Positions 128 through 46,959 of a stretch of DNA of 46,959 nucleotides are shown piece after piece. The translations under genes and the position numbers were made by a program. The notes beneath the pieces are model-generated. The model had not been told where the DNA came from and did not search any database. It saw only the letters and a list, made by a program, of their open reading frames with translations. The DNA comes from Candidatus Thorarchaeota archaeon (lineage in GTDB: Archaea; Asgardarchaeota; Thorarchaeia; Thorarchaeales; Thorarchaeaceae). The DNA lies in the NCBI GenBank assembly GCA_004524445.1, contig SDNP01000025.1, positions 1-46,959 of the forward strand. Direction: 5' to 3'. Within the stretch, counting starts at the first letter, position 1, and every line of letters starts with the position of its first letter.

Positions 128-772
128 CTATTTCTTAGCTTTCTTCCAATCAGCCAAGAATCTTTCAATGCCAACGTCGGTGAGGGGATGGTTCACCATT
201 TTTTCTAACACTGACGGTGGGATGGTGGCTATGTCGGCACCAATATATGCTGCCTCCAGAACGTGCATCGGATGACGGATGCTAGCGACAATAACCTCAG
301 TTTCGTATCCATAATTCATGTATATTTGTACAATCTCATCAACAAGTTGCATACCGGTCTTACCTACATCATCAAGTCTACCTATAAACGGTGAAATGAA
401 CGATGCCCCTGCCTTTGCTGCAAGAAGTGCTTGATTCGCACTAAAACAGAGGGTGACATTTGTGTGGATATCTTCCTCTGATAAGACCTTCACAGCCTTG
501 AGTCCCTCCCATGTCATTGGAATTTTGATAGCTGCATTATCGATCCAGCCATTCAGTTCGCGGGCTTCTTCTATCATTCCTTGAGCATCTTCGCTCACAA
601 CTTCAAGACTGATAGGGCCATCAACAAAAGAAGCGATTTCATCTATAATCTCTCTGAAGTTACGACCTTCCTTAGCCACAAGACTCGGATTTGTGGTCAC
701 TCCATCCACCATTCCTCTCTCGTGGGCTTTTCGTATTGCATCTACGTTTGCGGTATCAATGAAGAATTTCAT
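128..772 (-). CDS. tal: Transaldolase / fructose-6-phosphate aldolase family (short TalC type)
   Basis: [16 protein letters not shown], Schiff-base [26 protein letters not shown] motifs; 214 aa. Confidence 0.93.
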
Positions 773-5880: not shown

Positions 5881-7092
5881 TTGGGAGATATTCAACGGTA
5901 CGATGTCATAATCATTGGTGCTGGACCTGCGGGATCATCAACTGCAAGAGTGATTGCTAGAAGGGGCTATAGGACGCTCCTAGTTGAACGAAAATCAAGA
6001 GTTGGTATTCCTGTTCTTTGTGGAGAATTCCTTCCTACAGTAGAGGAATTGCGGGATATTCTTCCCCACTCGAGTAGGATTGACAGAATCTGCAATATCA
6101 GTAATTCCGTAGTGTTGAATCGATGCAACCACATTGTGTTAGTATCACCCTCTGGTGATGAATTTGATATTCCGATGAGAGCAATAGTTATTGACCGCGC
6201 TGCTTTTGACCAGCATTTGGCGGAGCAAGCTCTCAAGGCGGGAGCTATCCTTCTCACAGGAACAAAACTCAAAGATAGGGTTTCTAAGAATCAAGTCCGA
6301 TTAATTTCAGGCAGTGGGACTAGGATAGTTGAATGCGCTGTTCTCGTCGGTGCAGATGGTCCATTATCTACAGTAGCACGCTGTGTACCAGGACTGAGTC
6401 AGCAGGAAACGAATGACCTGAGTATATCAATACAGTATACTATTGAAGCAACTGGATTTGACTCTGACAGAGTCTTCATGTTTTTTGGTAATATAGCTCC
6501 TGGCGGATATGCATGGATTATTCCTAGAGGTCATACTGAAGCCAACGTAGGACTAGGATTGAGACCTTCTTATGCAACCCCCAGAAGATCTCTGAGGAAC
6601 TATCTGCATTCCTTTATTCATCACTACCTGATCGAAAAGCTAGGAATTCGGAATATCAGAATCAAGAGAAGGATTAGTGGATTTATTCCGGTAAATGGCC
6701 CAGTTCAAAGCACGGTAACTGCCACTGCTTTACTTGTGGGCGATGCCGCATCTCATGTTATGCCCACGAATGGAGGCGGAATTCCAACTGCTCTGATTGG
6801 CGGAAACATTGCGGGTAAAGCGATAGTAGACTATCTTAAATCAGGTTCAAAATTGAGCAATTATGAGGAAATGTGGCGTAGAGAATTTGGCAATGAGCTG
6901 ATTACGGGTGCCTCTCTTCTTTCAGTGGCCAGCATCCCCATGCTGAGCGATGCGGTTACGGAGTGGGCCATGAGGTGTTTTGGAAGACGCATGCTTAATG
7001 ATGTCATCCGTTGCAGAGTGCCATATCCATTTCAAGAACTGAGTACGCCCCTCAATTTGATGACAGGTCAATTACACCGTTTTCTTCGATGA
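5881..7092 (+). CDS. Geranylgeranyl reductase family FAD-dependent oxidoreductase
   Basis: GAGPAGS, CGE, DRxxFD, GADG, GGYAWIIP, LLVGDAA...PTNGGGI. Confidence 0.9.
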   Translation: MGDIQRYDVIIIGAGPAGSSTARVIARRGYRTLLVERKSRVGIPVLCGEFLPTVEELRDILPHSSRIDRICNISNSVVLNRCNHIVLVSPSGDEFDIPMRAIVIDRAAFDQHLAEQALKAGAILLTGTKLKDRVSKNQVRLISGSGTRIVECAVLVGADGPLSTVARCVPGLSQQETNDLSISIQYTIEATGFDSDRVFMFFGNIAPGGYAWIIPRGHTEANVGLGLRPSYATPRRSLRNYLHSFIHHYLIEKLGIRNIRIKRRISGFIPVNGPVQSTVTATALLVGDAASHVMPTNGGGIPTALIGGNIAGKAIVDYLKSGSKLSNYEEMWRREFGNELITGASLLSVASIPMLSDAVTEWAMRCFGRRMLNDVIRCRVPYPFQELSTPLNLMTGQLHRFLR

Positions 7093-7120
7093 CTGCATCA
7101 AGCAGCATGTTGTACCATGC

Positions 7121-8182
7121 CTAGAATTTGCGACGGACCGCAAAATCTGCCAGGTCAGCAAATAGCTCCTTGTTTGGGAAATTCATGTCTTCTATTGCTG
7201 CCTTTGATGCTCTAGCATATTCCTTTGCCTTTTCAGTTGCCCGGGCTATGGCCCCAGAATCTTCAATCAGTTCGAGCACCAAGGAGTAGTTTCCCATGGT
7301 AATCTCATCAACACATTCCTCTTTTACCTCTGACTCACACGCTTCTAATGCATATATCAGAACAAGATTACTACTTCCAGCCTGAAGGTCAGTTAGAACT
7401 GACTTTCCTGAAACTCTTGGATCCGATGTAAAATCTAGTACATCATCGCGAATCTGGAAGGCATATCCTAAATTCTCTGCATATTCAATCAAACATGCGA
7501 CTTCTTTTTTGCTAGATTTGCCCATGGCTGACCCGATATTTACTGCCTCTATCATGAAGGAAGCAGTCTTTCTTTCCGCGACTTCAAGGTATTCTTCTTC
7601 GCTGAAAGAAAGAAGCTCATTAATATTCATAACTGAGTCCTGAGCTTCACCTTCGCACATGGCAATACCTGTCCTTCCAATTTGCTCAATTAGCTCAGGA
7701 GTTCCCCATTTTCCCATGATCTCAAAAGCTTGTGAGATCAACAAATCAGATGCCAAGATTGCCATTTTTTCGCCGAATTTCTTATGAACTGTCGTTACTC
7801 CTCTACGAATTTCTGTGTTGTCAATTATATCATCATGGATTAGACTTGCCGTCTGAAGGAGTTCAGCGGCGACGGTAATCGGCAGTATTCTTTGCAGATT
7901 CCCATTCACTGCCTCGCACGCCAAGTAGGTCAAGAGAGACCTCAATCTTTTTCCACCTGCTCTAACAAGGTAATATGCCGCATCATAAAGCGCCGCAGGT
8001 GTACCTGTGTTCTTTGATGTGAATTTAGCAACTTCATTATCGATGAGATTCAGTCGGTTCCTAATCGCAAGTCCAAGAGGTAGGAAAGAGGTTCGCTCAC
8101 TGTATTGAACATCCTCTGATATCGATTGTTTCTCCGAATTTGTAAAAGACAAGCGATGCTCGTCAGTAGAGCCTTCCTTCAA
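7121..8182 (-). CDS. Polyprenyl diphosphate synthase (probably medium/long chain)
   Basis: GGKRLR, FARM ASLIHDDIID..RRG, KTA, SARM FQIRDDVLD; Ala/Ser at positions -5/-4 of the FARM. Confidence 0.92.
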   Translation of the reverse strand: MKEGSTDEHRLSFTNSEKQSISEDVQYSERTSFLPLGLAIRNRLNLIDNEVAKFTSKNTGTPAALYDAAYYLVRAGGKRLRSLLTYLACEAVNGNLQRILPITVAAELLQTASLIHDDIIDNTEIRRGVTTVHKKFGEKMAILASDLLISQAFEIMGKWGTPELIEQIGRTGIAMCEGEAQDSVMNINELLSFSEEEYLEVAERKTASFMIEAVNIGSAMGKSSKKEVACLIEYAENLGYAFQIRDDVLDFTSDPRVSGKSVLTDLQAGSSNLVLIYALEACESEVKEECVDEITMGNYSLVLELIEDSGAIARATEKAKEYARASKAAIEDMNFPNKELFADLADFAVRRKF

Positions 8183-40499: not shown

Positions 40500-42695
40500 G
40501 TGACTTCCCTCATACAAGAGAATGCTTGGTCTATTATTCGAAGAATGGCCGCGACACTGCTTGACCACAGAAGGATTGAGGATGCAGATGCTCAAGAGAT
40601 CGAAATAGTTCGTCTAGCATCTCTGAACCACTTGCTGGCATCATGCCTTAACCACACCAATGGCTATATTGCGAATCTTCGTGAGGCACCGTTCTCCAGA
40701 TTGAGTTATGCATCGCTATTCATTGGGCTTGATTCCGAGGAGATTTTGACAGATGCAAGGCGTCTCCTGGAAATGATATCCGCACCCTGCAATGAAGCCA
40801 AGGAGCTTCCTCTGTATTCTTTACCGGATTTGTTGTCGCAGATACATTCATTATGCTCCTATCATCTCTCGCCAGTCGGTCGCCTCTTCCAGAAGAATCT
40901 CGGGGCTTTCTATACCCCGCCAGAAATTGCTGGCTACATTGTGAAATCAATAATAGATGTCAATGGAGGGAACCAAAAATGGAGAACTACTAAGGATGAT
41001 TTCAAAGGCAAAATGCCTAACATCCTAGATCCAGCCTGTGGTACTGGCGCCTTTCTTGTTGCAGCCTTCAAGGTTTTTTCGGAATCCTATTTACATGACG
41101 ATGATTCATCAAGAGTGGCGAATTCAGCAAAAATACTGCAAGAAATAAGCGAGCGTATCTATGGAGTGGACCTTGATGCAGGGTCAGTGGAGATAGCAGA
41201 CATCTCCCTCAGTCTCTTGGGCGGTGAACGAAAGCTCCCAATGAAGAGTCGTCAATTTGGGGTAACTCTAAAACAGGGTAATGCCCTCATATCGCCAACA
41301 GGGAACGACTCAGAAAAGCGATTAGATGCATTTTTTGAAAATCCGAGTTCCGAGTTGCCGTTCGATTGGGAAAAGGAATTTCCCCGGATATTCTCAGATG
41401 ATGAATCTGGTTTCGATGTTGTTGTCGTCAATCCACCATATGAGCGGCTTAAACCGAATAGAACAGAGTTTGGGCGACATTTGGGTGAGGAACTAGCTAG
41501 GAGGTACCCGTCACTCAGTTTTGCCAACGACGCGCAAAGAATCAAGGAGAAGATTACTTACTTCCGAAAATCAGACCAGTATGAATATGCAAATGTCTAT
41601 TCAATGGACACTTATCGACTATTCATCGAACGGTCTCTTCAACTGCTGAGAAACAGTGGCAAATTCGGATTTATTGTCCCATCCACTCTTGCAGGCGACT
41701 TGGCTTCAAAGGAAATCAGAAGATATCTGTTTATAGAAAATAGCTTGTCCAGCCTAGACTTCTTCAAGGAAACAGCAGATATATTCCCAGATGTGAGTCA
41801 AGCTTTCTGTGTCATGGTGGGCAACAAAGGTGGTAGTACTTCAAAAATCGACCTTCGATTCGGGCTGAACTCCATTGATCAACTGACTTCCATTCGTAGC
41901 TATCAAATGCATTTGGATGAAATGGCCCGGATTGTTGGGTTCTCTCTCGTTGTGCCTCGAATAGAATCATTTGAGTGGGAAATCCTGAAACAAATGCATA
42001 CCCACCCTACTGTGGCCGAAGCCGATTGGATTCTCAATCACCGAGGTGAGCTTGACCTGACACTCGATAAAGAGTTCCTGTCGGACAAGGAAATAGGTCC
42101 GCGTTTGCTGAAAGGCTCTGATATAGGACGATATGCCTTAAGAGCCTCAGAAACCTCGTACTCACCAAAATATGTACGCCTGAGAGATTTCAGACAGTCA
42201 AAAACAAAATCAGTCAGGCTTGGCCATATTGATTCAGAAAGAATTGCCTGTCAGCAGATAAACAACCAACATCAAAAATGGCGCCTAAAATTCGCCAAGG
42301 TAAATTCGGGATTCGTGTTGGCGAACTCCTGCAATTACTTGACCGTGACAAGCCAAAAATCTAGGGGCACATTATTGAATTATCTCCTTGGTCTGATGAA
42401 CTCCGAGCTCATGAATTGGAGATTCTCTGCCACGAGCTACAACAACCATGTATCCAACAGAGAGCTCGACACGCTTCCGGTTCCAAATCCAATGGATTCA
42501 GAAAAACAAGATGAAACTATGAAGGAAATCGCAAATTTGGCGTCCAGAGCAAGTCATCGAAGTCAAGACTTAGTACCAAAAATCGAAAGTCTAGTTTTCA
42601 AGCTTTTTGACATTCGTAAATCCACAGCCTCCAAGCTGTTGGATTCTAGAGGTTTAGGAGAGCAGCAGATTAGCAACATTCTCAATCATATGTAG
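40500..42695 (+). CDS. N6-adenine DNA methyltransferase (gamma class, Alw26I/Eco31I/Esp3I-like)
   Basis: GAFYTP, ILDPACGTGAFL, NPPY, C-terminal TRD (YLLGLMNS..NNHVSNREL). Confidence 0.88.
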   Translation: MTSLIQENAWSIIRRMAATLLDHRRIEDADAQEIEIVRLASLNHLLASCLNHTNGYIANLREAPFSRLSYASLFIGLDSEEILTDARRLLEMISAPCNEAKELPLYSLPDLLSQIHSLCSYHLSPVGRLFQKNLGAFYTPPEIAGYIVKSIIDVNGGNQKWRTTKDDFKGKMPNILDPACGTGAFLVAAFKVFSESYLHDDDSSRVANSAKILQEISERIYGVDLDAGSVEIADISLSLLGGERKLPMKSRQFGVTLKQGNALISPTGNDSEKRLDAFFENPSSELPFDWEKEFPRIFSDDESGFDVVVVNPPYERLKPNRTEFGRHLGEELARRYPSLSFANDAQRIKEKITYFRKSDQYEYANVYSMDTYRLFIERSLQLLRNSGKFGFIVPSTLAGDLASKEIRRYLFIENSLSSLDFFKETADIFPDVSQAFCVMVGNKGGSTSKIDLRFGLNSIDQLTSIRSYQMHLDEMARIVGFSLVVPRIESFEWEILKQMHTHPTVAEADWILNHRGELDLTLDKEFLSDKEIGPRLLKGSDIGRYALRASETSYSPKYVRLRDFRQSKTKSVRLGHIDSERIACQQINNQHQKWRLKFAKVNSGFVLANSCNYLTVTSQKSRGTLLNYLLGLMNSELMNWRFSATSYNNHVSNRELDTLPVPNPMDSEKQDETMKEIANLASRASHRSQDLVPKIESLVFKLFDIRKSTASKLLDSRGLGEQQISNILNHM

Positions 42696-42748: not shown

Positions 42749-43990
42749 ATGGTCACTATGTTTGAGGCAGAGGCTACTGATGGACATGAGGTTGATCAGA
42801 CCATTAGTCTATTCAATCATGTTACTGCGAAACTAAGTGACTTGGACCTTGAGATGGTAAAATCGGTCAAACCAGGTGGAAATTGGAATGACATTCCTCT
42901 GAAGACTGCCAAAAAATCGAAACGACTCATGCAGATCAGAAACTCCGGAGGTCGAACAACCTACTATGGCAGACTCCGACCTGATTTGCCAAGCTATACC
43001 ATCAATACATACTTCAATAGACCCGGAAATGGAACATTCATTCACCCGGAAAGAAACAGGCTTATCTCCATCAGAGAAGCAGCTCGACTCCAATCATTCT
43101 CAGATGATTTCAGGTTCTATGGCAGTCTTAGTTCGCAATACAAACAGATAGGAAATGCTGTTCCTCCCCTTCTAGCTAGGGCAATAGGAAGTATGATTCC
43201 TGCTTCTCGGGCTGTTGACTTATTCTGTGGGGCTGGTGGCATGTCAAATGGCCTAATTCAAGCTGGACACAAGGTAATTGCAGCAGCGGATGTGAACAAT
43301 CATATGCTTGAAACATATGGTGAGAATCACAATCAAACCAAATCCGTAAAATCTGATTTCACGAAGAACAAGGACATCACCGAGACAATCCAGTCCATTG
43401 AGGGTTCTCTCGCGGGAAAGACACTGGGATTGCTGGCGGCTGGTCCCCCCTGTCAGGGGTTTTCAACGGCCGGTAAACGAAAAGACGATGATCCTCGTAA
43501 TTCTCTGCTCTTTGCCGCTCTGAAAATCGTAGACACCCTCTGTCCTGAACATATCTTGATTGAGAACGTTCTTGGATTGAAATGGATGAAAGGTGGAGAT
43601 ATTCTAGGCTCGTTCATGCAGCACTTGGAATCATTGGGTTATGCTGCATCGTGGCACAAACTATACGCAGAACAGTTTGGTGTTCCGCAGCGACGCAGAA
43701 GGATCTTTGTCTTGGCATCTCAAACGGGAAATGAATTCAGTCCACCTGAACCGGTTTTTTCACGTGTTACAACAGGCCGGACAAGAGAAGATATACATTT
43801 CAAAGATAGTCACCTAGCGGAACCTGTATCTGTTGATGAAGCCATAGGCGATATGCCCCAAGTATGTGAAGATACTGATTGTGTAGAATATCAACCCAGT
43901 AACACTAAGAGCAGAAGCACGTATCAGCAGCTCATGCGAAAAGAAATATCTTATGAGAAATTTATTGAAGGTCGGTCGAAGAAAGCTTGA
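42749..43990 (+). CDS. Circularly permuted C5-cytosine DNA methyltransferase
   Basis: TRD + motif IX (REAARLQSF) + X (QIGNAVPP) precede motif I (DLFCGAGG), IV (GPPCQGFS), VI (ENV) and VIII (QRRRRIF). Confidence 0.92.
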   Translation: MVTMFEAEATDGHEVDQTISLFNHVTAKLSDLDLEMVKSVKPGGNWNDIPLKTAKKSKRLMQIRNSGGRTTYYGRLRPDLPSYTINTYFNRPGNGTFIHPERNRLISIREAARLQSFSDDFRFYGSLSSQYKQIGNAVPPLLARAIGSMIPASRAVDLFCGAGGMSNGLIQAGHKVIAAADVNNHMLETYGENHNQTKSVKSDFTKNKDITETIQSIEGSLAGKTLGLLAAGPPCQGFSTAGKRKDDDPRNSLLFAALKIVDTLCPEHILIENVLGLKWMKGGDILGSFMQHLESLGYAASWHKLYAEQFGVPQRRRRIFVLASQTGNEFSPPEPVFSRVTTGRTREDIHFKDSHLAEPVSVDEAIGDMPQVCEDTDCVEYQPSNTKSRSTYQQLMRKEISYEKFIEGRSKKA

Positions 43991-44044: not shown

Positions 44045-45757
44045 GTGATTAGCGGCGCTATCCTGTATGATCTTGCAGGAGCAAAGGAATGGGCAAGGAT
44101 TCAGTTTACCAAAGAACACTTTCCAGAAGAGGTGCCAGAAGAAGTCATCTCACGATTTTTTGACTTGATATTGCAGGATGATATGGAGAGCTGTGTTACA
44201 ATCCAAGTGTCAGGAATATCTTTTTGTTTGGCACGGGTTGATGAGAAGACCTTGCTACTAACATATACTTCTGATGAGAAACCAGAAGTTGATGATGTGG
44301 ACCGAACGGTCGAGTTACGGGATTATCTGGCTGACCTTCTCATGGCTGAATCTCCTAGGGATGCTAGTAAGAGGTGGCATAGCATAGCTGGCAAAGTTCT
44401 TCGGAAAAATATCCGGATTAGATTTGCAATGCCCTCTTTTATACTCAACAACACGAAACCGGGTTCGGGAGTTCAGCGGATTATGCAAATATGTGGGGAT
44501 GGCTACGAAGATCGAGAGAGTCTAGTTGTGGGTCCCTTCGAAATATCGTCATCATTCAGCCAAATATCTGAATTGGCTGATGACAGCTCTTATCTCACTT
44601 CTCCGACAGATGATGTTATTCTAACGATTGTTAAAAGAGGTATTTTCACGGACAATATGATTCAGCAACTTGAGGATATTAAGGAAAACGTGTCAATCCC
44701 CGTATTGGTAGTTCCTGCATCGGATGAAGATCTAGAGTTTACACGTAGTTTAGAGAACCGAGGCTTCAGATTGTGCGACTCCATCACAGAAGACCCGATT
44801 GATTTGACACTTGCCATTCTAGCGATGATGGGCGAGTCACATATGCAACCTGAGCTAGCGCGGAAGAAATGGGTAATCAACAAATTGGAGGCATTTGTAG
44901 AAGAATCTGGGCCCGATGATGAGAAGGAAGGGTTTGGTCATAAAGCATTCTTCGTTGTGACTAGAGAAAATGGAGAGGCTGTCTTTAGCTACTATTACGA
45001 TGTCAGCAGCGAGTTCTTGGAACGATCCCCCAATGTGATTGCCGCCATAACCATGTTTGAGTTCGACACAGAAGAAGACAGCAGAACATCAGTATTTCGA
45101 ACAGGTGAGCTCGTATATGCAGTCATTGAACATGAAGACTTGATTTTTGCTCTTATCACGGGTCAAGATGAAGATATAGCTGACTTGCGCCGTCGATTCT
45201 CGTTCCTACCTGAACTCTGGAGAGAAGAGGACCCGGAGAACCTGCGTTGCGACAGCCAACCCTATCACTCACCTCCCTTCGCCTTAAAGCTCCTTGCTAC
45301 TCTACCCCCCGAAAAGCTGCCAATGCGATATTATCCGGTTAGAAAAAAGGAGCCTGATTGGGTAACATTTCGCTATCCTGAAGTAAGAGACCTCCTGCAG
45401 GCTGTCTGGCAGGCCATAGAGAAACCAATCATTGTAGAGCAGTTTGCGGCAAGCGAAGGTCCGAATATGACTTTGGGTGCGATTCATCTCCTTCGCATTC
45501 TGGAAGCCATCGATTTTAGGGTGAAGATTGCTCTTGACGACAGACCAGTTTTCGTGGAAGAATTGGATGACCAAACAAAACAAATCTACTCGCACATCGA
45601 ACAAATCAGAAATCACACAGACGGAAATAAGACAATCAAAGCAATTGGTGAAGCTGTCGGAATAGCTCCCGCAATACTTCTCCGGGTGTTTCAAGACCTG
45701 CACAGACGGGGATTGGTTCACTTCAGAAATGCTGATATGTCATCAGAAAACTCTTAG
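44045..45757 (+). CDS. Putative longin / degenerate GTPase / longin / tandem winged-helix protein
   Basis: GTG start after AGGAG; N-terminal half aligns by eye with the downstream longin-GTPase; C-terminal DGNKTIKAIG..LHRRGLV wHTH. Confidence 0.7.
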   Translation: MISGAILYDLAGAKEWARIQFTKEHFPEEVPEEVISRFFDLILQDDMESCVTIQVSGISFCLARVDEKTLLLTYTSDEKPEVDDVDRTVELRDYLADLLMAESPRDASKRWHSIAGKVLRKNIRIRFAMPSFILNNTKPGSGVQRIMQICGDGYEDRESLVVGPFEISSSFSQISELADDSSYLTSPTDDVILTIVKRGIFTDNMIQQLEDIKENVSIPVLVVPASDEDLEFTRSLENRGFRLCDSITEDPIDLTLAILAMMGESHMQPELARKKWVINKLEAFVEESGPDDEKEGFGHKAFFVVTRENGEAVFSYYYDVSSEFLERSPNVIAAITMFEFDTEEDSRTSVFRTGELVYAVIEHEDLIFALITGQDEDIADLRRRFSFLPELWREEDPENLRCDSQPYHSPPFALKLLATLPPEKLPMRYYPVRKKEPDWVTFRYPEVRDLLQAVWQAIEKPIIVEQFAASEGPNMTLGAIHLLRILEAIDFRVKIALDDRPVFVEELDDQTKQIYSHIEQIRNHTDGNKTIKAIGEAVGIAPAILLRVFQDLHRRGLVHFRNADMSSENS

Positions 45758-45838
45758 ATGTATTGGTAAGAAGAGATAACTGTACATGGAAGTATAAACA
45801 ATATAGCTTGATATTTGCAGTTAGTTTGGTGATTAAGC

Positions 45839-46959
45839 ATGATACACAACGTCCTCCTCATCAGAAAGAGAACAGGGGACGTTATTGTCAGTGCTCGTTT
45901 CTGGAAAATTGAATTCGAAGAAGAGCACATTCAAGACTTCCTGATTGGGCGCCAGGAGATGCAAGAAACAGAGGGCCTTGCCGAAGACACTCCAGTCTAT
46001 GTGAATGAACACAAAGTGTTCCATGGAGAAGTTGGAGAAGACTTCCTGCTTATCTTCGCAACTGATGGTAGAGATGAAGACCGCACCATCCAACATAAGG
46101 TCCGAGAGGGCTCAGCTCGAATTGAAACCGCCCTCCGAGGCAATACCTTAGGCTACATCAAAGACAATCTTGAGGAGATTCTGGGCGAACTCATCTTCAC
46201 TCGCTTCAAGATTTCATTCGTGGGGTCAGGCGGTGTGGGCAAATCAACCCTTCTTCGTCTCTTATTCGGCAAAGAACCCGCCCCAGGGGGATATGTGCCC
46301 ACCATAAATGTGGCTGTGGACAGCAGTGAAACCATTCAGTTTGGCACTTTTCTTGTCACGATTTGGGACTTCGCCGGGCAGGCCGTTTTTCAAGACCTTT
46401 GGTCGTTCTATTTCCAGGGAACGGATGTAATTTTCCTCATCACGGATAGCAGTTTCCGGAATGTGATGCAAACAAAGTCACTGATGCGGAATATCAAGAA
46501 AGAGGCTCCGGCTGTACCGTTATTCATTGTCGCGAACAAGCAGGACCTTCCTGAATCCATGGCAGGCGATAAGATTCAGCGTCTACTGGGAGCTCCCACC
46601 TTCTCAATGGTTGCAACCTATAAGACTCGTCGAGAGGAGGTCATCCGGTTTATGCTTGAGGTTGCTGCGAAGACTGTCGGCGTCCAGTTGCCAAATCGCC
46701 CAATCAGCGAAATGATTACTGTTCGGCGAAAGACCGAGGAGATTGACCGCCCTGAATTGCAGAGAGAGCGGGATATCAAAGAATCAGGGTTTGAAGAGGT
46801 TCCCTTCGAAGGTGGAGAGGCATCTGCTGACCTGCAGATTGACACATCCAAGGCAGTGGAAGACGCCCTGTCTGAGGATTCAGATGCGGGCATAGAAGAC
46901 ACGACTGAAACAGAAGTGGAAACACAGGTTCCATCGACCACAAGAATACTGAACCTCAT
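45839..46959 (+). CDS. Longin-fused Arf-like small GTPase (partial, runs off the right edge)
   Basis: GGTGA SD + ATG 45839, 373 open codons to the window end; G1 GSGGVGKS, G2 PT, G3 WDFAGQ, LWSFYF, G4 NKQD; ~120-aa longin-like N-terminus; acidic linker. Confidence 0.9.
   Translation, partial: MIHNVLLIRKRTGDVIVSARFWKIEFEEEHIQDFLIGRQEMQETEGLAEDTPVYVNEHKVFHGEVGEDFLLIFATDGRDEDRTIQHKVREGSARIETALRGNTLGYIKDNLEEILGELIFTRFKISFVGSGGVGKSTLLRLLFGKEPAPGGYVPTINVAVDSSETIQFGTFLVTIWDFAGQAVFQDLWSFYFQGTDVIFLITDSSFRNVMQTKSLMRNIKKEAPAVPLFIVANKQDLPESMAGDKIQRLLGAPTFSMVATYKTRREEVIRFMLEVAAKTVGVQLPNRPISEMITVRRKTEEIDRPELQRERDIKESGFEEVPFEGGEASADLQIDTSKAVEDALSEDSDAGIEDTTETEVETQVPSTTRILNL

Follow-up and report, generated by a model that had tools for sequence, protein, structure and literature searches.

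Does a pair of neighbouring genes at the end of a thorarchaeal contig encode a small GTPase together with a nucleotide-free copy of itself, and do the two products act as one module? The stretch of DNA examined here (the window, 46,959 nt) is the entire contig C64 of a Candidatus Thorarchaeota archaeon assembly of 64 contigs and 2.79 Mb, and the two genes, called A and B below, are its last. A first-pass annotation of the window had described them as co-oriented genes 81 nt apart whose first ~280 amino acids (aa) run in near-identical register, one with intact G motifs and the other without, and had proposed that this duplicated pair forms an active/inactive heterodimer. Our analysis favours a reading, to which we give a probability of roughly 0.55, in which the duplicated pair would work as a heterodimer with B as the switch and A as a nucleotide-free partner that scaffolds or tunes B.

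Pairwise BLASTP of A against B gave no significant match (best E 0.72, out of register), and the case for homology therefore rests on profiles. Comparison of the A family alignment (A1, 29 sequences) with the B family alignment (A2, 28 sequences) using hhalign revealed a match with 98.2% probability and an E-value of 4e-14 over 553 columns (A 4-570, B 6-661), in which MISGAILYD is paired with MIHNVLLIR, DEKTLLLTYTSD with GEDFLLIFATDG, and KNIRIRFA with TRFKISFV at residue 121. When the domains were compared separately, the cognate pairs were recovered for the first longin (E 3.4e-6), the G domain (72%, E 3.4e-5) and the tail (E 2.5e-11); the second longins of A and B gave an insignificant hhalign score on their own, and all twelve non-cognate domain pairs remained at or below 1.3% probability. 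The end-to-end profile match and the cognate-only domain scores identify A and B as full-length paralogues. Thus, the two genes arose by gene duplication and have a common layout of longin, G-fold domain, longin and two winged helices. Both open reading frames (ORFs) lie on the plus strand at the expected positions, and the near-identical register, although invisible to BLASTP, was reproduced by the profile alignment.

The G domain of B fits the Ras-superfamily small GTPase signature (G1 GxxxxGK[ST], switch I Thr, G3 DxxGQ, G4 NKxD). Its motifs, GSGGVGKST at residues 129-137, T155 in switch I, DFAGQ at 177-181 and NKQD at 233-236, are invariant in 28 relatives, and residues 121-254 matched Pfam Arf (2.6e-18), Roc (3.8e-17) and Ras (2.4e-14), all over the cut-offs. 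Judged by sequence, B appears Arf-like rather than Rag-like: its match to Pfam Gtr1_RagA (6.7e-5, 22.8 bits for a cut-off of 22) falls far under that to Arf (66.5 bits), and the best PDB sequence matches of the B profile are Arf1. A 120-aa longin domain stands where an Arf-type N-terminal amphipathic helix would be, which would place B outside the Arf family proper; an Asgard-only 'ArfL' group has been set apart from true Arf relatives by Vargova et al. (bioRxiv 10.1101/2024.02.28.582541). Full-length B orthologues measure ~650 aa and carry a second longin and two winged helices as in A, and the earlier description of B as a longin-Arf-like GTPase was incomplete to that extent. The AlphaFold2 (AF2) model of the B orthologue P0034 has a mean predicted local distance difference test score (pLDDT) of 68; the G domain is poorly modelled, as is the linker behind it, which holds ~75 acidic residues (it is short in A) and has a pLDDT <50 over residues 292-365.

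In contrast to the invariant motifs of B, the P-loop Lys/Ser, DxxG and NKxD were present in none of the 29 A-family sequences at the positions aligned to B's motifs, so that G1-G4 are lost. With G-domain homology and loss of the nucleotide motifs combined, residues 121-280 of A would be classed as a pseudoGTPase domain. The AF2 model of A (mean pLDDT 80) runs b1-a1-b2-b3-a2-b4-a3-b5-a4-b6-a5 over these residues, which is the G-domain order including the b2-b3 hairpin. No Pfam or NCBIfam family matched A over the whole protein, and the sole match of the A profile among PDB sequences was a de novo Rossmann design (E 0.019). A is under purifying selection: its ratio of non-synonymous to synonymous substitution rates (dN/dS) against an 84%-identical orthologue was 0.107, compared with 0.059 for B (residues 1-373) and 0.17 for the C5-cytosine methyltransferase encoded upstream, and the majority of the family's 85 genomes (~75) encode a full-length A without an internal stop. 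A dN/dS of 0.11 and intact frames across the family rule out a decaying pseudogene.

All four longin copies in A and B combine the bb-a-bbb-aa order with a structural match to solved longins. VIA searches matched residues 1-120 of A to COPI zeta/delta, AP sigma/mu, VAMP7, sedlin and SRX (Z 12-13.7, root-mean-square deviation (rmsd) 2.4-3.0 over 112-120 residues), the first longin of B (P0034 model) to COPI delta 5mu7_B and 9qpq_L (Z 13.7, rmsd 2.3-2.5 over 113 residues), and the second longin of B (369-506 of the same model) to AP sigma and TRAPP Bet5/Trs23 (Z 13.1 and 11.3). The match of A's second longin was weaker than those of the other longins (Z 9.4 to MP1/p14, range 297..394); no other part of A is as well conserved as this domain (mean column identity 0.68). 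Since VIA was queried with full-length models, the match lists were dominated by longin 1 and hardly sampled the winged-helix tail of A. For that tail, residues 524-559 gave a weak match to the Rrf2 helix-turn-helix (HTH; E 0.085 with the whole protein, 0.021 with the C-terminal half alone), and an Atlas cluster of a 291-aa Thorarchaeota longin/winged-helix protein aligned to A 278-561. In Foldseek searches the best matches of the A and B models were the GATOR1/SEAC longin subunits (NPRL2/NPRL3) and Rag/Gtr chains (E 4e-6 to 1e-3); the other top matches were the tri-longin guanine-nucleotide exchange factors (GEFs) Mon1-Ccz1, Fuzzy-Inturned and BLOC-3, AP sigma subunits and the Lokiarchaeota RagA-like GTPase 8yl2. 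Residues 369-652 of B could be aligned along the entire length of a longin subunit of GATOR1 (chain 8fw5_C; Z 9.7, 178 residues, rmsd 8.8). The longin folds and the Rag- and NPRL2/NPRL3-like arrangements of both proteins were thus recovered.

The distribution of the two genes was examined over 400 Asgard genomes. Full-length A was limited to the window's own Thorarchaeia family, in which an automatic tally counted 78 of 85 genomes and the true number is ~75, three of the 78 being cases where the A profile touches B. Of the 31 clusters of A homologues, every one with a source name comes from Thorarchaeota/Promethearchaeota, and an exhaustive hidden Markov model search of 1.84 billion representatives returned only 46 proteins, which comprised the A family, fragments, B and one 273-aa relative. 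B was identified in 74 of the 85 family genomes at E <1e-90. In ~30 genomes a B match lies just 3' of A on the same contig and strand, and B starts ~80-110 nt past A in loci L003 and L004, a spacing that recurs in 10 of the 12 loci L007-L018 (the contig of L009 ends before B). The A-B adjacency is therefore conserved across the genera of one family. Taken together, the paralogy, the motif loss, the purifying selection, the folds and the conserved adjacency are secure.

Binding of A to B was modelled in one complex job that combined A 1-435 with residues 1-530 of P0034, each with its family alignment; the winged helices were omitted to make room for every longin and G domain. The model reached ipSAE values of 0.62, 0.62 and 0.64, compared with 0.00 for the best of three controls, and the runs shared at least 55% of contacts with a partner pLDDT of at least 65. 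The confident contacts on A (residues 230-231, 234, 243, 245, 260, 265-268 and 271) map to alpha4, beta6, alpha5 and the HPELA loop of the pseudoGTPase domain, and those on B (205-207, 238-241, 245, 248-249 and 251) to the beta4-alpha3 loop, the loop after NKQD and alpha4. P0034 and the window's B are identical at the contact residues. On the side of A the predicted interface includes the invariant L230, L243 and D245, opposite K245, R248 and L249 of B. No longin-longin contact between A and B was modelled at low error in these segments. The model thus supports the predicted association of an active with an inactive subunit, but not through the longin-longin interfaces that the first-pass annotation had expected; its confident contacts join the pseudoGTPase domain to the G domain (the C-terminal tails were outside the job).

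B is most likely the switch because it retains a complete nucleotide pocket and the catalytic Gln, and A is most likely the nucleotide-free partner because G1-G4 are lost and yet the protein is conserved. In the mechanism we propose, the alpha4/beta6/alpha5 and HPELA surface of A would dock on the side of B's G domain where the loop following NKQD lies with the beta4-alpha3 loop and alpha4, beside the guanine-base pocket. Docked in this way, A would scaffold B or tune its nucleotide state, and the four longins together with the NPRL2/NPRL3-like longin-plus-winged-helix tails would pass the output to partners. The binding is thus a prediction of the model, and the direction of regulation and the output are what we infer.

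Several points weigh against this reading. A-B binding is predicted from a complex model that used our own unpaired alignments, so that the calibration, in which 58 of 80 solved complexes but only 2 of 110 mismatched pairs reached the ipSAE mark, holds approximately. Residues conserved at 90% or more make up 7 of the 11 A contact residues compared with 14 of the 149 in the rest of the domain (Fisher p 6e-5), which would be consistent with a functional surface but is not independent of the predictor, as this had seen the same alignment. In a wide VIA search with the full-length model, the middle domain of A matched CheY-like receivers (Z 9-10) as closely as the G domain of SelB (Z 9.0, 134 residues), and the label 'pseudoGTPase' therefore leans chiefly on homology to B; the Foldseek alignment of A to Rag chains over ~300 columns also had the full-length model as its query. 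A was found neither in G311 (96% complete), the only genome of the sister family, where B is a 644-aa ORF with 45% identity, nor in G369, a single 2.58-Mb contig. Both genomes have B, and A is therefore not its obligate partner; because both keep B and a beta-CASP gene without A or an orthologous methyltransferase, A is either younger than B or more easily lost. Across the same loci identity was 68-77% for B and 34-37% for A, which points to faster evolution of A. Finally, in genus g13 (L005, L015) an opposite-strand gene lies between A and B, so the two are not always co-transcribed.

The absence of A beside B in G311 and G369, the much faster divergence of A and the intervening gene of g13 would all fit paralogues that act separately, B by itself or in homo-oligomers, as other Asgard Rag-like GTPases do (PDB 8yl2, the structure of a Lokiarchaeota RagA-like GTPase, is a homotetramer), and A in some other, GTP-independent job, with their adjacency a relic of tandem duplication. 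We regard this as possible but rather unlikely. The A-B order has held across genera in which A retains so little identity and the upstream flanks differ, and the complex model passes where its controls score 0.00, with contacts that fall on the conserved patch of A. Of the two, we prefer the heterodimer.

The neighbouring genes raise a second alternative. In three distant loci an N6-adenine methyltransferase, a C5-cytosine methyltransferase, A and B are followed by a beta-CASP gene convergent to B, and the outer flanks of these loci differ. The C5 methyltransferase lies immediately 5' of A in 16 of 16 fetched loci (L003-L018). B and the beta-CASP gene stand tail to tail, tens of bases apart, in family genomes with both on one contig, and they are neighbours ~700 nt apart in the sister family; the linkage of B to the beta-CASP gene predates its linkage to A and is tighter. 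Genomes G332 (93% complete) and G335 (85%) both lack the C5 methyltransferase, A, B and the beta-CASP gene, all of which occur in their congener G333. Gain or loss seems to affect the block as a whole, although at this completeness some contigs may be missing. G369 and G311 keep B and the beta-CASP gene and have no orthologous methyltransferase and no A, which indicates that A travels with the methyltransferases. By presence and absence the block thus falls into two parts.

This pattern would suit a larger functional block of m6A methyltransferase, m5C methyltransferase, A, B and convergent beta-CASP gene in which the winged helices bind nucleic acid and the GTPase controls DNA methylation or a nuclease/RNA-processing step, with an epigenetic or restriction-like role and not one in membrane or nutrient signalling. 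The last winged helix is weakly like prokaryotic DNA-binding HTHs (Rrf2, E 0.02-0.085; the PADLOC CARF-associated HTH, E 0.001). We consider this explanation doubtful. The joint loss of adjacent genes amounts to one deletion and is no proof of shared function, and the winged helices of NPRL2/3 are protein-binding modules. The block is also single-copy, family-wide and conservatively evolving, unlike mobile defence islands. PADLOC assigned no defence system to A, B or the beta-CASP protein; only the two methyltransferases matched, to type II methyltransferase models, and the other PADLOC matches were marginal (the CARF-associated HTH and, over the P-loop, LeoA/LeoBC at E 0.006-0.009). No restriction endonuclease was recognised near the methyltransferase pair. 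The best NCBIfam match of the adenine methyltransferase was TIGR02987 (Alw26I/Eco31I/Esp3I; 2e-80, below the cut-off), and one PADLOC model of a fused type II methyltransferase (1036 positions) spans both genes; the two genes seem to correspond to a fused enzyme of the Alw26I/Eco31I/Esp3I type that has been split.

A third possibility, that A is a longin regulator of B of the GTPase-activating protein (GAP) or GEF type, acting in the manner of NPRL2-NPRL3, FLCN-FNIP or Mon1-Ccz1 through a longin-longin platform on B's switch regions, has four longin folds and the Foldseek matches to NPRL2/3, Mon1-Ccz1, Fuzzy-Inturned and BLOC-3 in its favour, as well as G-P in the longin 1 beta1-beta2 loop of 8 of 29 A sequences, the site occupied by the proposed GP motif of GAP-type longins (PMC12290439), but is very improbable, as that motif is absent from all four longin domains of the window proteins (the loop reads L-A-G-A-K in A longin 1, and the other three longins have Gly without Pro), no arginine finger could be assigned, and the confident contacts join G and pseudoGTPase domains away from the switch regions with no low-error longin-longin contact.

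Table 1. Features of the A-B locus and its upstream neighbours (positions in the window; aa, residues of the respective protein)
Feature	Position	Strand	Description
N6-adenine methyltransferase	40500..42695	+	Pfam matches of the methyltransferase pair: Eco57I, N6_Mtase, TaqI_C, DNA_methylase
Permuted C5-cytosine methyltransferase	42749..43990	+	circularly permuted; directly upstream of A
Gene A	44045..45757	+	ORF, 570 aa; longin / predicted pseudoGTPase / longin / two winged helices
A longin 1	44045..44404	+	aa 1-120; bb-a-bbb-aa order in model
A pseudoGTPase domain (predicted)	44405..44884	+	aa 121-280; aligned in register with the G domain of B
A conserved patch	44723..44860	+	aa 227-272; SDxxLE..R, LCDS, HPELA; predicted contact surface for B
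A longin 2	44936..45232	+	aa 298-396; bb-a-bbb-aa in model
A connector and two winged-helix repeats	45233..45754	+	aa 397-570; FSFLPDLW ... PPFTLKLLATLPPE; invariant columns in A1
A-B spacer	45758..45838	+	81 nt, read directly
Gene B, 5' part	45839..46959	+	ORF, aa 1-373 of ~655; longin / Arf-like GTPase / acidic linker / start of longin 2
B longin 1	45839..46198	+	aa 1-120
B GTPase domain	46199..46708	+	aa 121-290; G1 46223-46249, G3 46367-46381, G4 46535-46546
B acidic low-complexity linker and first residues of longin 2	46709..46959	+	variable region in A2

Gene A starts with GTG, with AGGAG ~10 nt 5' of the start codon (Table 1). The spacer between A and B has no T run of four or more, and contains a TATA-like gtataaacaatata ~40-55 nt 5' of B's ATG and GGTGA ~8 nt 5' of it; its sequence appears compatible with co-transcription and with an internal promoter alike. 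The frame of gene B is open at the contig end after 373 codons, and a profile of the C-terminal half of B located its last 201 codons in the same assembly on contig C59 (G000:C59:2-607, L019:2-607). The window portion is 89% identical, ungapped, to residues 1-373 of P0034 and the C59 portion 90% identical to residues 455-655, so that ~81 codons fall in the assembly gap between C64 and C59. The downstream gene could thus be recovered except for this stretch, and nothing points to a broken gene. At window positions 46619-46642, B has Val at residue 268, where 28 of 28 aligned relatives have Phe, and Tyr at 261, where the orthologues P0034-P0036, P0197 and P0198 have Asp; these differences may be real variation or a consensus error of the metagenome-assembled genome (MAG).

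The beta-CASP gene follows B on C59 (G000:C59:621-2774, L019, minus strand; 717 aa), as in related loci, and its counterpart in another locus lies at L003:9775-11928. The protein is single-copy with 713-717 aa in the family; its ~330-aa N-terminal part has no assignment, and its partial matches to aCPSF1 and Cas14 (1e-43) lie far under the cut-offs. At the G369 locus (L021, G369:C1:1062000-1078000) B, whose ORF counted from its first start codon has 599 aa, seems to be shortened at the N-terminus, as does the beta-CASP gene (527 aa), and a major facilitator superfamily transporter gene occupies the expected place of A. A 500-aa ORF 5' of B in the sister family was considered as a divergent A and rejected, as it encodes a caspase-like peptidase. 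The gene inserted between A and B in g13 (L005:7707-9284, minus strand) encodes 525 aa with a weak DUF7408 match only.

Among known systems, NPRL2-NPRL3 (Npr2-Npr3, GATOR1/SEACIT) resembles A and B as a paralogous pair with a longin followed by C-terminal winged-helix-type domains. On the models, we read this as architectural likeness and not as common descent. NPRL2/3 lack a G domain and serve as the GAP of a GTPase that is a separate protein, their domain orientation is unlike that of A and B (rmsd 9-15 Å), and no sequence similarity was detectable for A in Pfam or a PDB sequence search. Rag/Gtr GTPases (RagA/B-RagC/D, Gtr1-Gtr2) and Asgard Rag-like proteins (8yl2) share the order of a G domain and then a roadblock/longin-type domain and the occurrence as paired paralogues, and Foldseek aligned ~300 columns of both A and B to Rag/Gtr chains (E 1e-5 to 1e-3). 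Both Rag partners bind nucleotide, however, whereas A has no pocket; B is by its profile scores Arf-like (Arf 66 vs Gtr1_RagA 23 bits) and has NKQD; Rags pair via C-terminal domains, in contrast to the G-fold contacts of the present model; and Rags have neither an N-terminal longin nor a winged-helix tail. The signal recognition particle receptor offers another longin-type domain that works with an Arf-like GTPase (SRX of SRalpha with SRbeta), and VIA matched SRX to A longin 1 (Z 10.4) and SRalpha to A 2-254 (Z 9.9); there each of the two is a chain of its own, SRX binds SRbeta at the switch region, and a second longin, winged helices and a dead paralogue are missing. Eukaryotic pseudoGTPases such as AAGAB (PDB 9ddt) likewise keep a nucleotide-motif-free G fold for protein binding, but the matched chain 9ddt_B is the AP-1 sigma longin and not the pseudoGTPase domain, and no homology to such families emerged.

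Closer relatives have been described in Asgard archaea. Tran et al. 2024 (PMC10933270) predicted longin-GTPase and longin-GTPase-roadblock fusions in Lokiarchaeota MK-D1, and noted that GTPase genes do not, as a rule, share operons with longin/roadblock genes and that assigning a GTPase to a regulator by genome layout is difficult. Liu et al. 2020 (bioRxiv 10.1101/2020.10.19.343400) reported an NPRL2-like longin family, with a longin and an NPRL2-type C-terminal domain, in most Thorarchaeota MAGs. An Asgard small GTPase between a longin and a second roadblock/longin domain, and a longin with an NPRL2-type tail, are thus common to these reports and to the present pair; neither reports a pseudoGTPase paralogue, a single-chain fusion of both modules or a conserved gene pair. 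We found no description of an archaeal pseudoGTPase, and none of a live/dead A-B pair, in the literature searched, subscription journals being outside its scope. The family also encodes stand-alone longin/two-winged-helix proteins of 272-325 aa, often as tandem pairs. A 281-aa copy lies at G000:C18:722-1567 (L020, minus strand) and matches the C-terminal half of B by hhalign (99.7%, E 1.5e-25), and an example of the tandem genes, which encode ~275-320 aa in many related genomes, is found at G371:C38:6067-6756 and 6977-7777. These proteins may be the 'NPRL2-like' family of Liu et al., and the tandem genes may form an NPRL2/NPRL3-like pair of their own.

The first-pass annotation had also suggested a precursor of Rag/GATOR1-type complexes. 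This gained no backing: A is confined to one Thorarchaeia family and was found neither in the sister family nor in one genome that keeps B, and such confinement argues against a direct ancestor. A broader form of the idea, that the pair is an archaeal single-chain small GTPase joined to an NPRL2/NPRL3-type longin/winged-helix module, duplicated to a live/dead heterodimer, with the module sharing ancestry with the GATOR1 longin subunits, seems to us distinctly unlikely. If it were true, the logic of Rag/GATOR1 (paired paralogues, longin platforms, winged-helix tails) would have been partly assembled in Asgard archaea before eukaryotes, and its wiring in Thorarchaeia may be to nucleic-acid enzymes, namely DNA methyltransferases and a beta-CASP nuclease, and not to membranes.

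Small GTPases and their longin/roadblock regulators are central to ideas on the Asgard origin of nutrient signalling and membrane traffic in eukaryotes. Longin-GTPase fusions and NPRL2-like longins were already known from Asgard archaea, and to these the locus adds a defined, conserved pair that can be tested at the bench: B unites a GTPase, longins and an NPRL2/3-like tail, and its neighbour is a nucleotide-dead copy predicted to bind it. If the pairing holds, A would be the first described archaeal pseudoGTPase partner, as far as the literature searched shows, and the pair would offer a simple system for the roles of the longin/winged-helix module in a cell without endomembranes.

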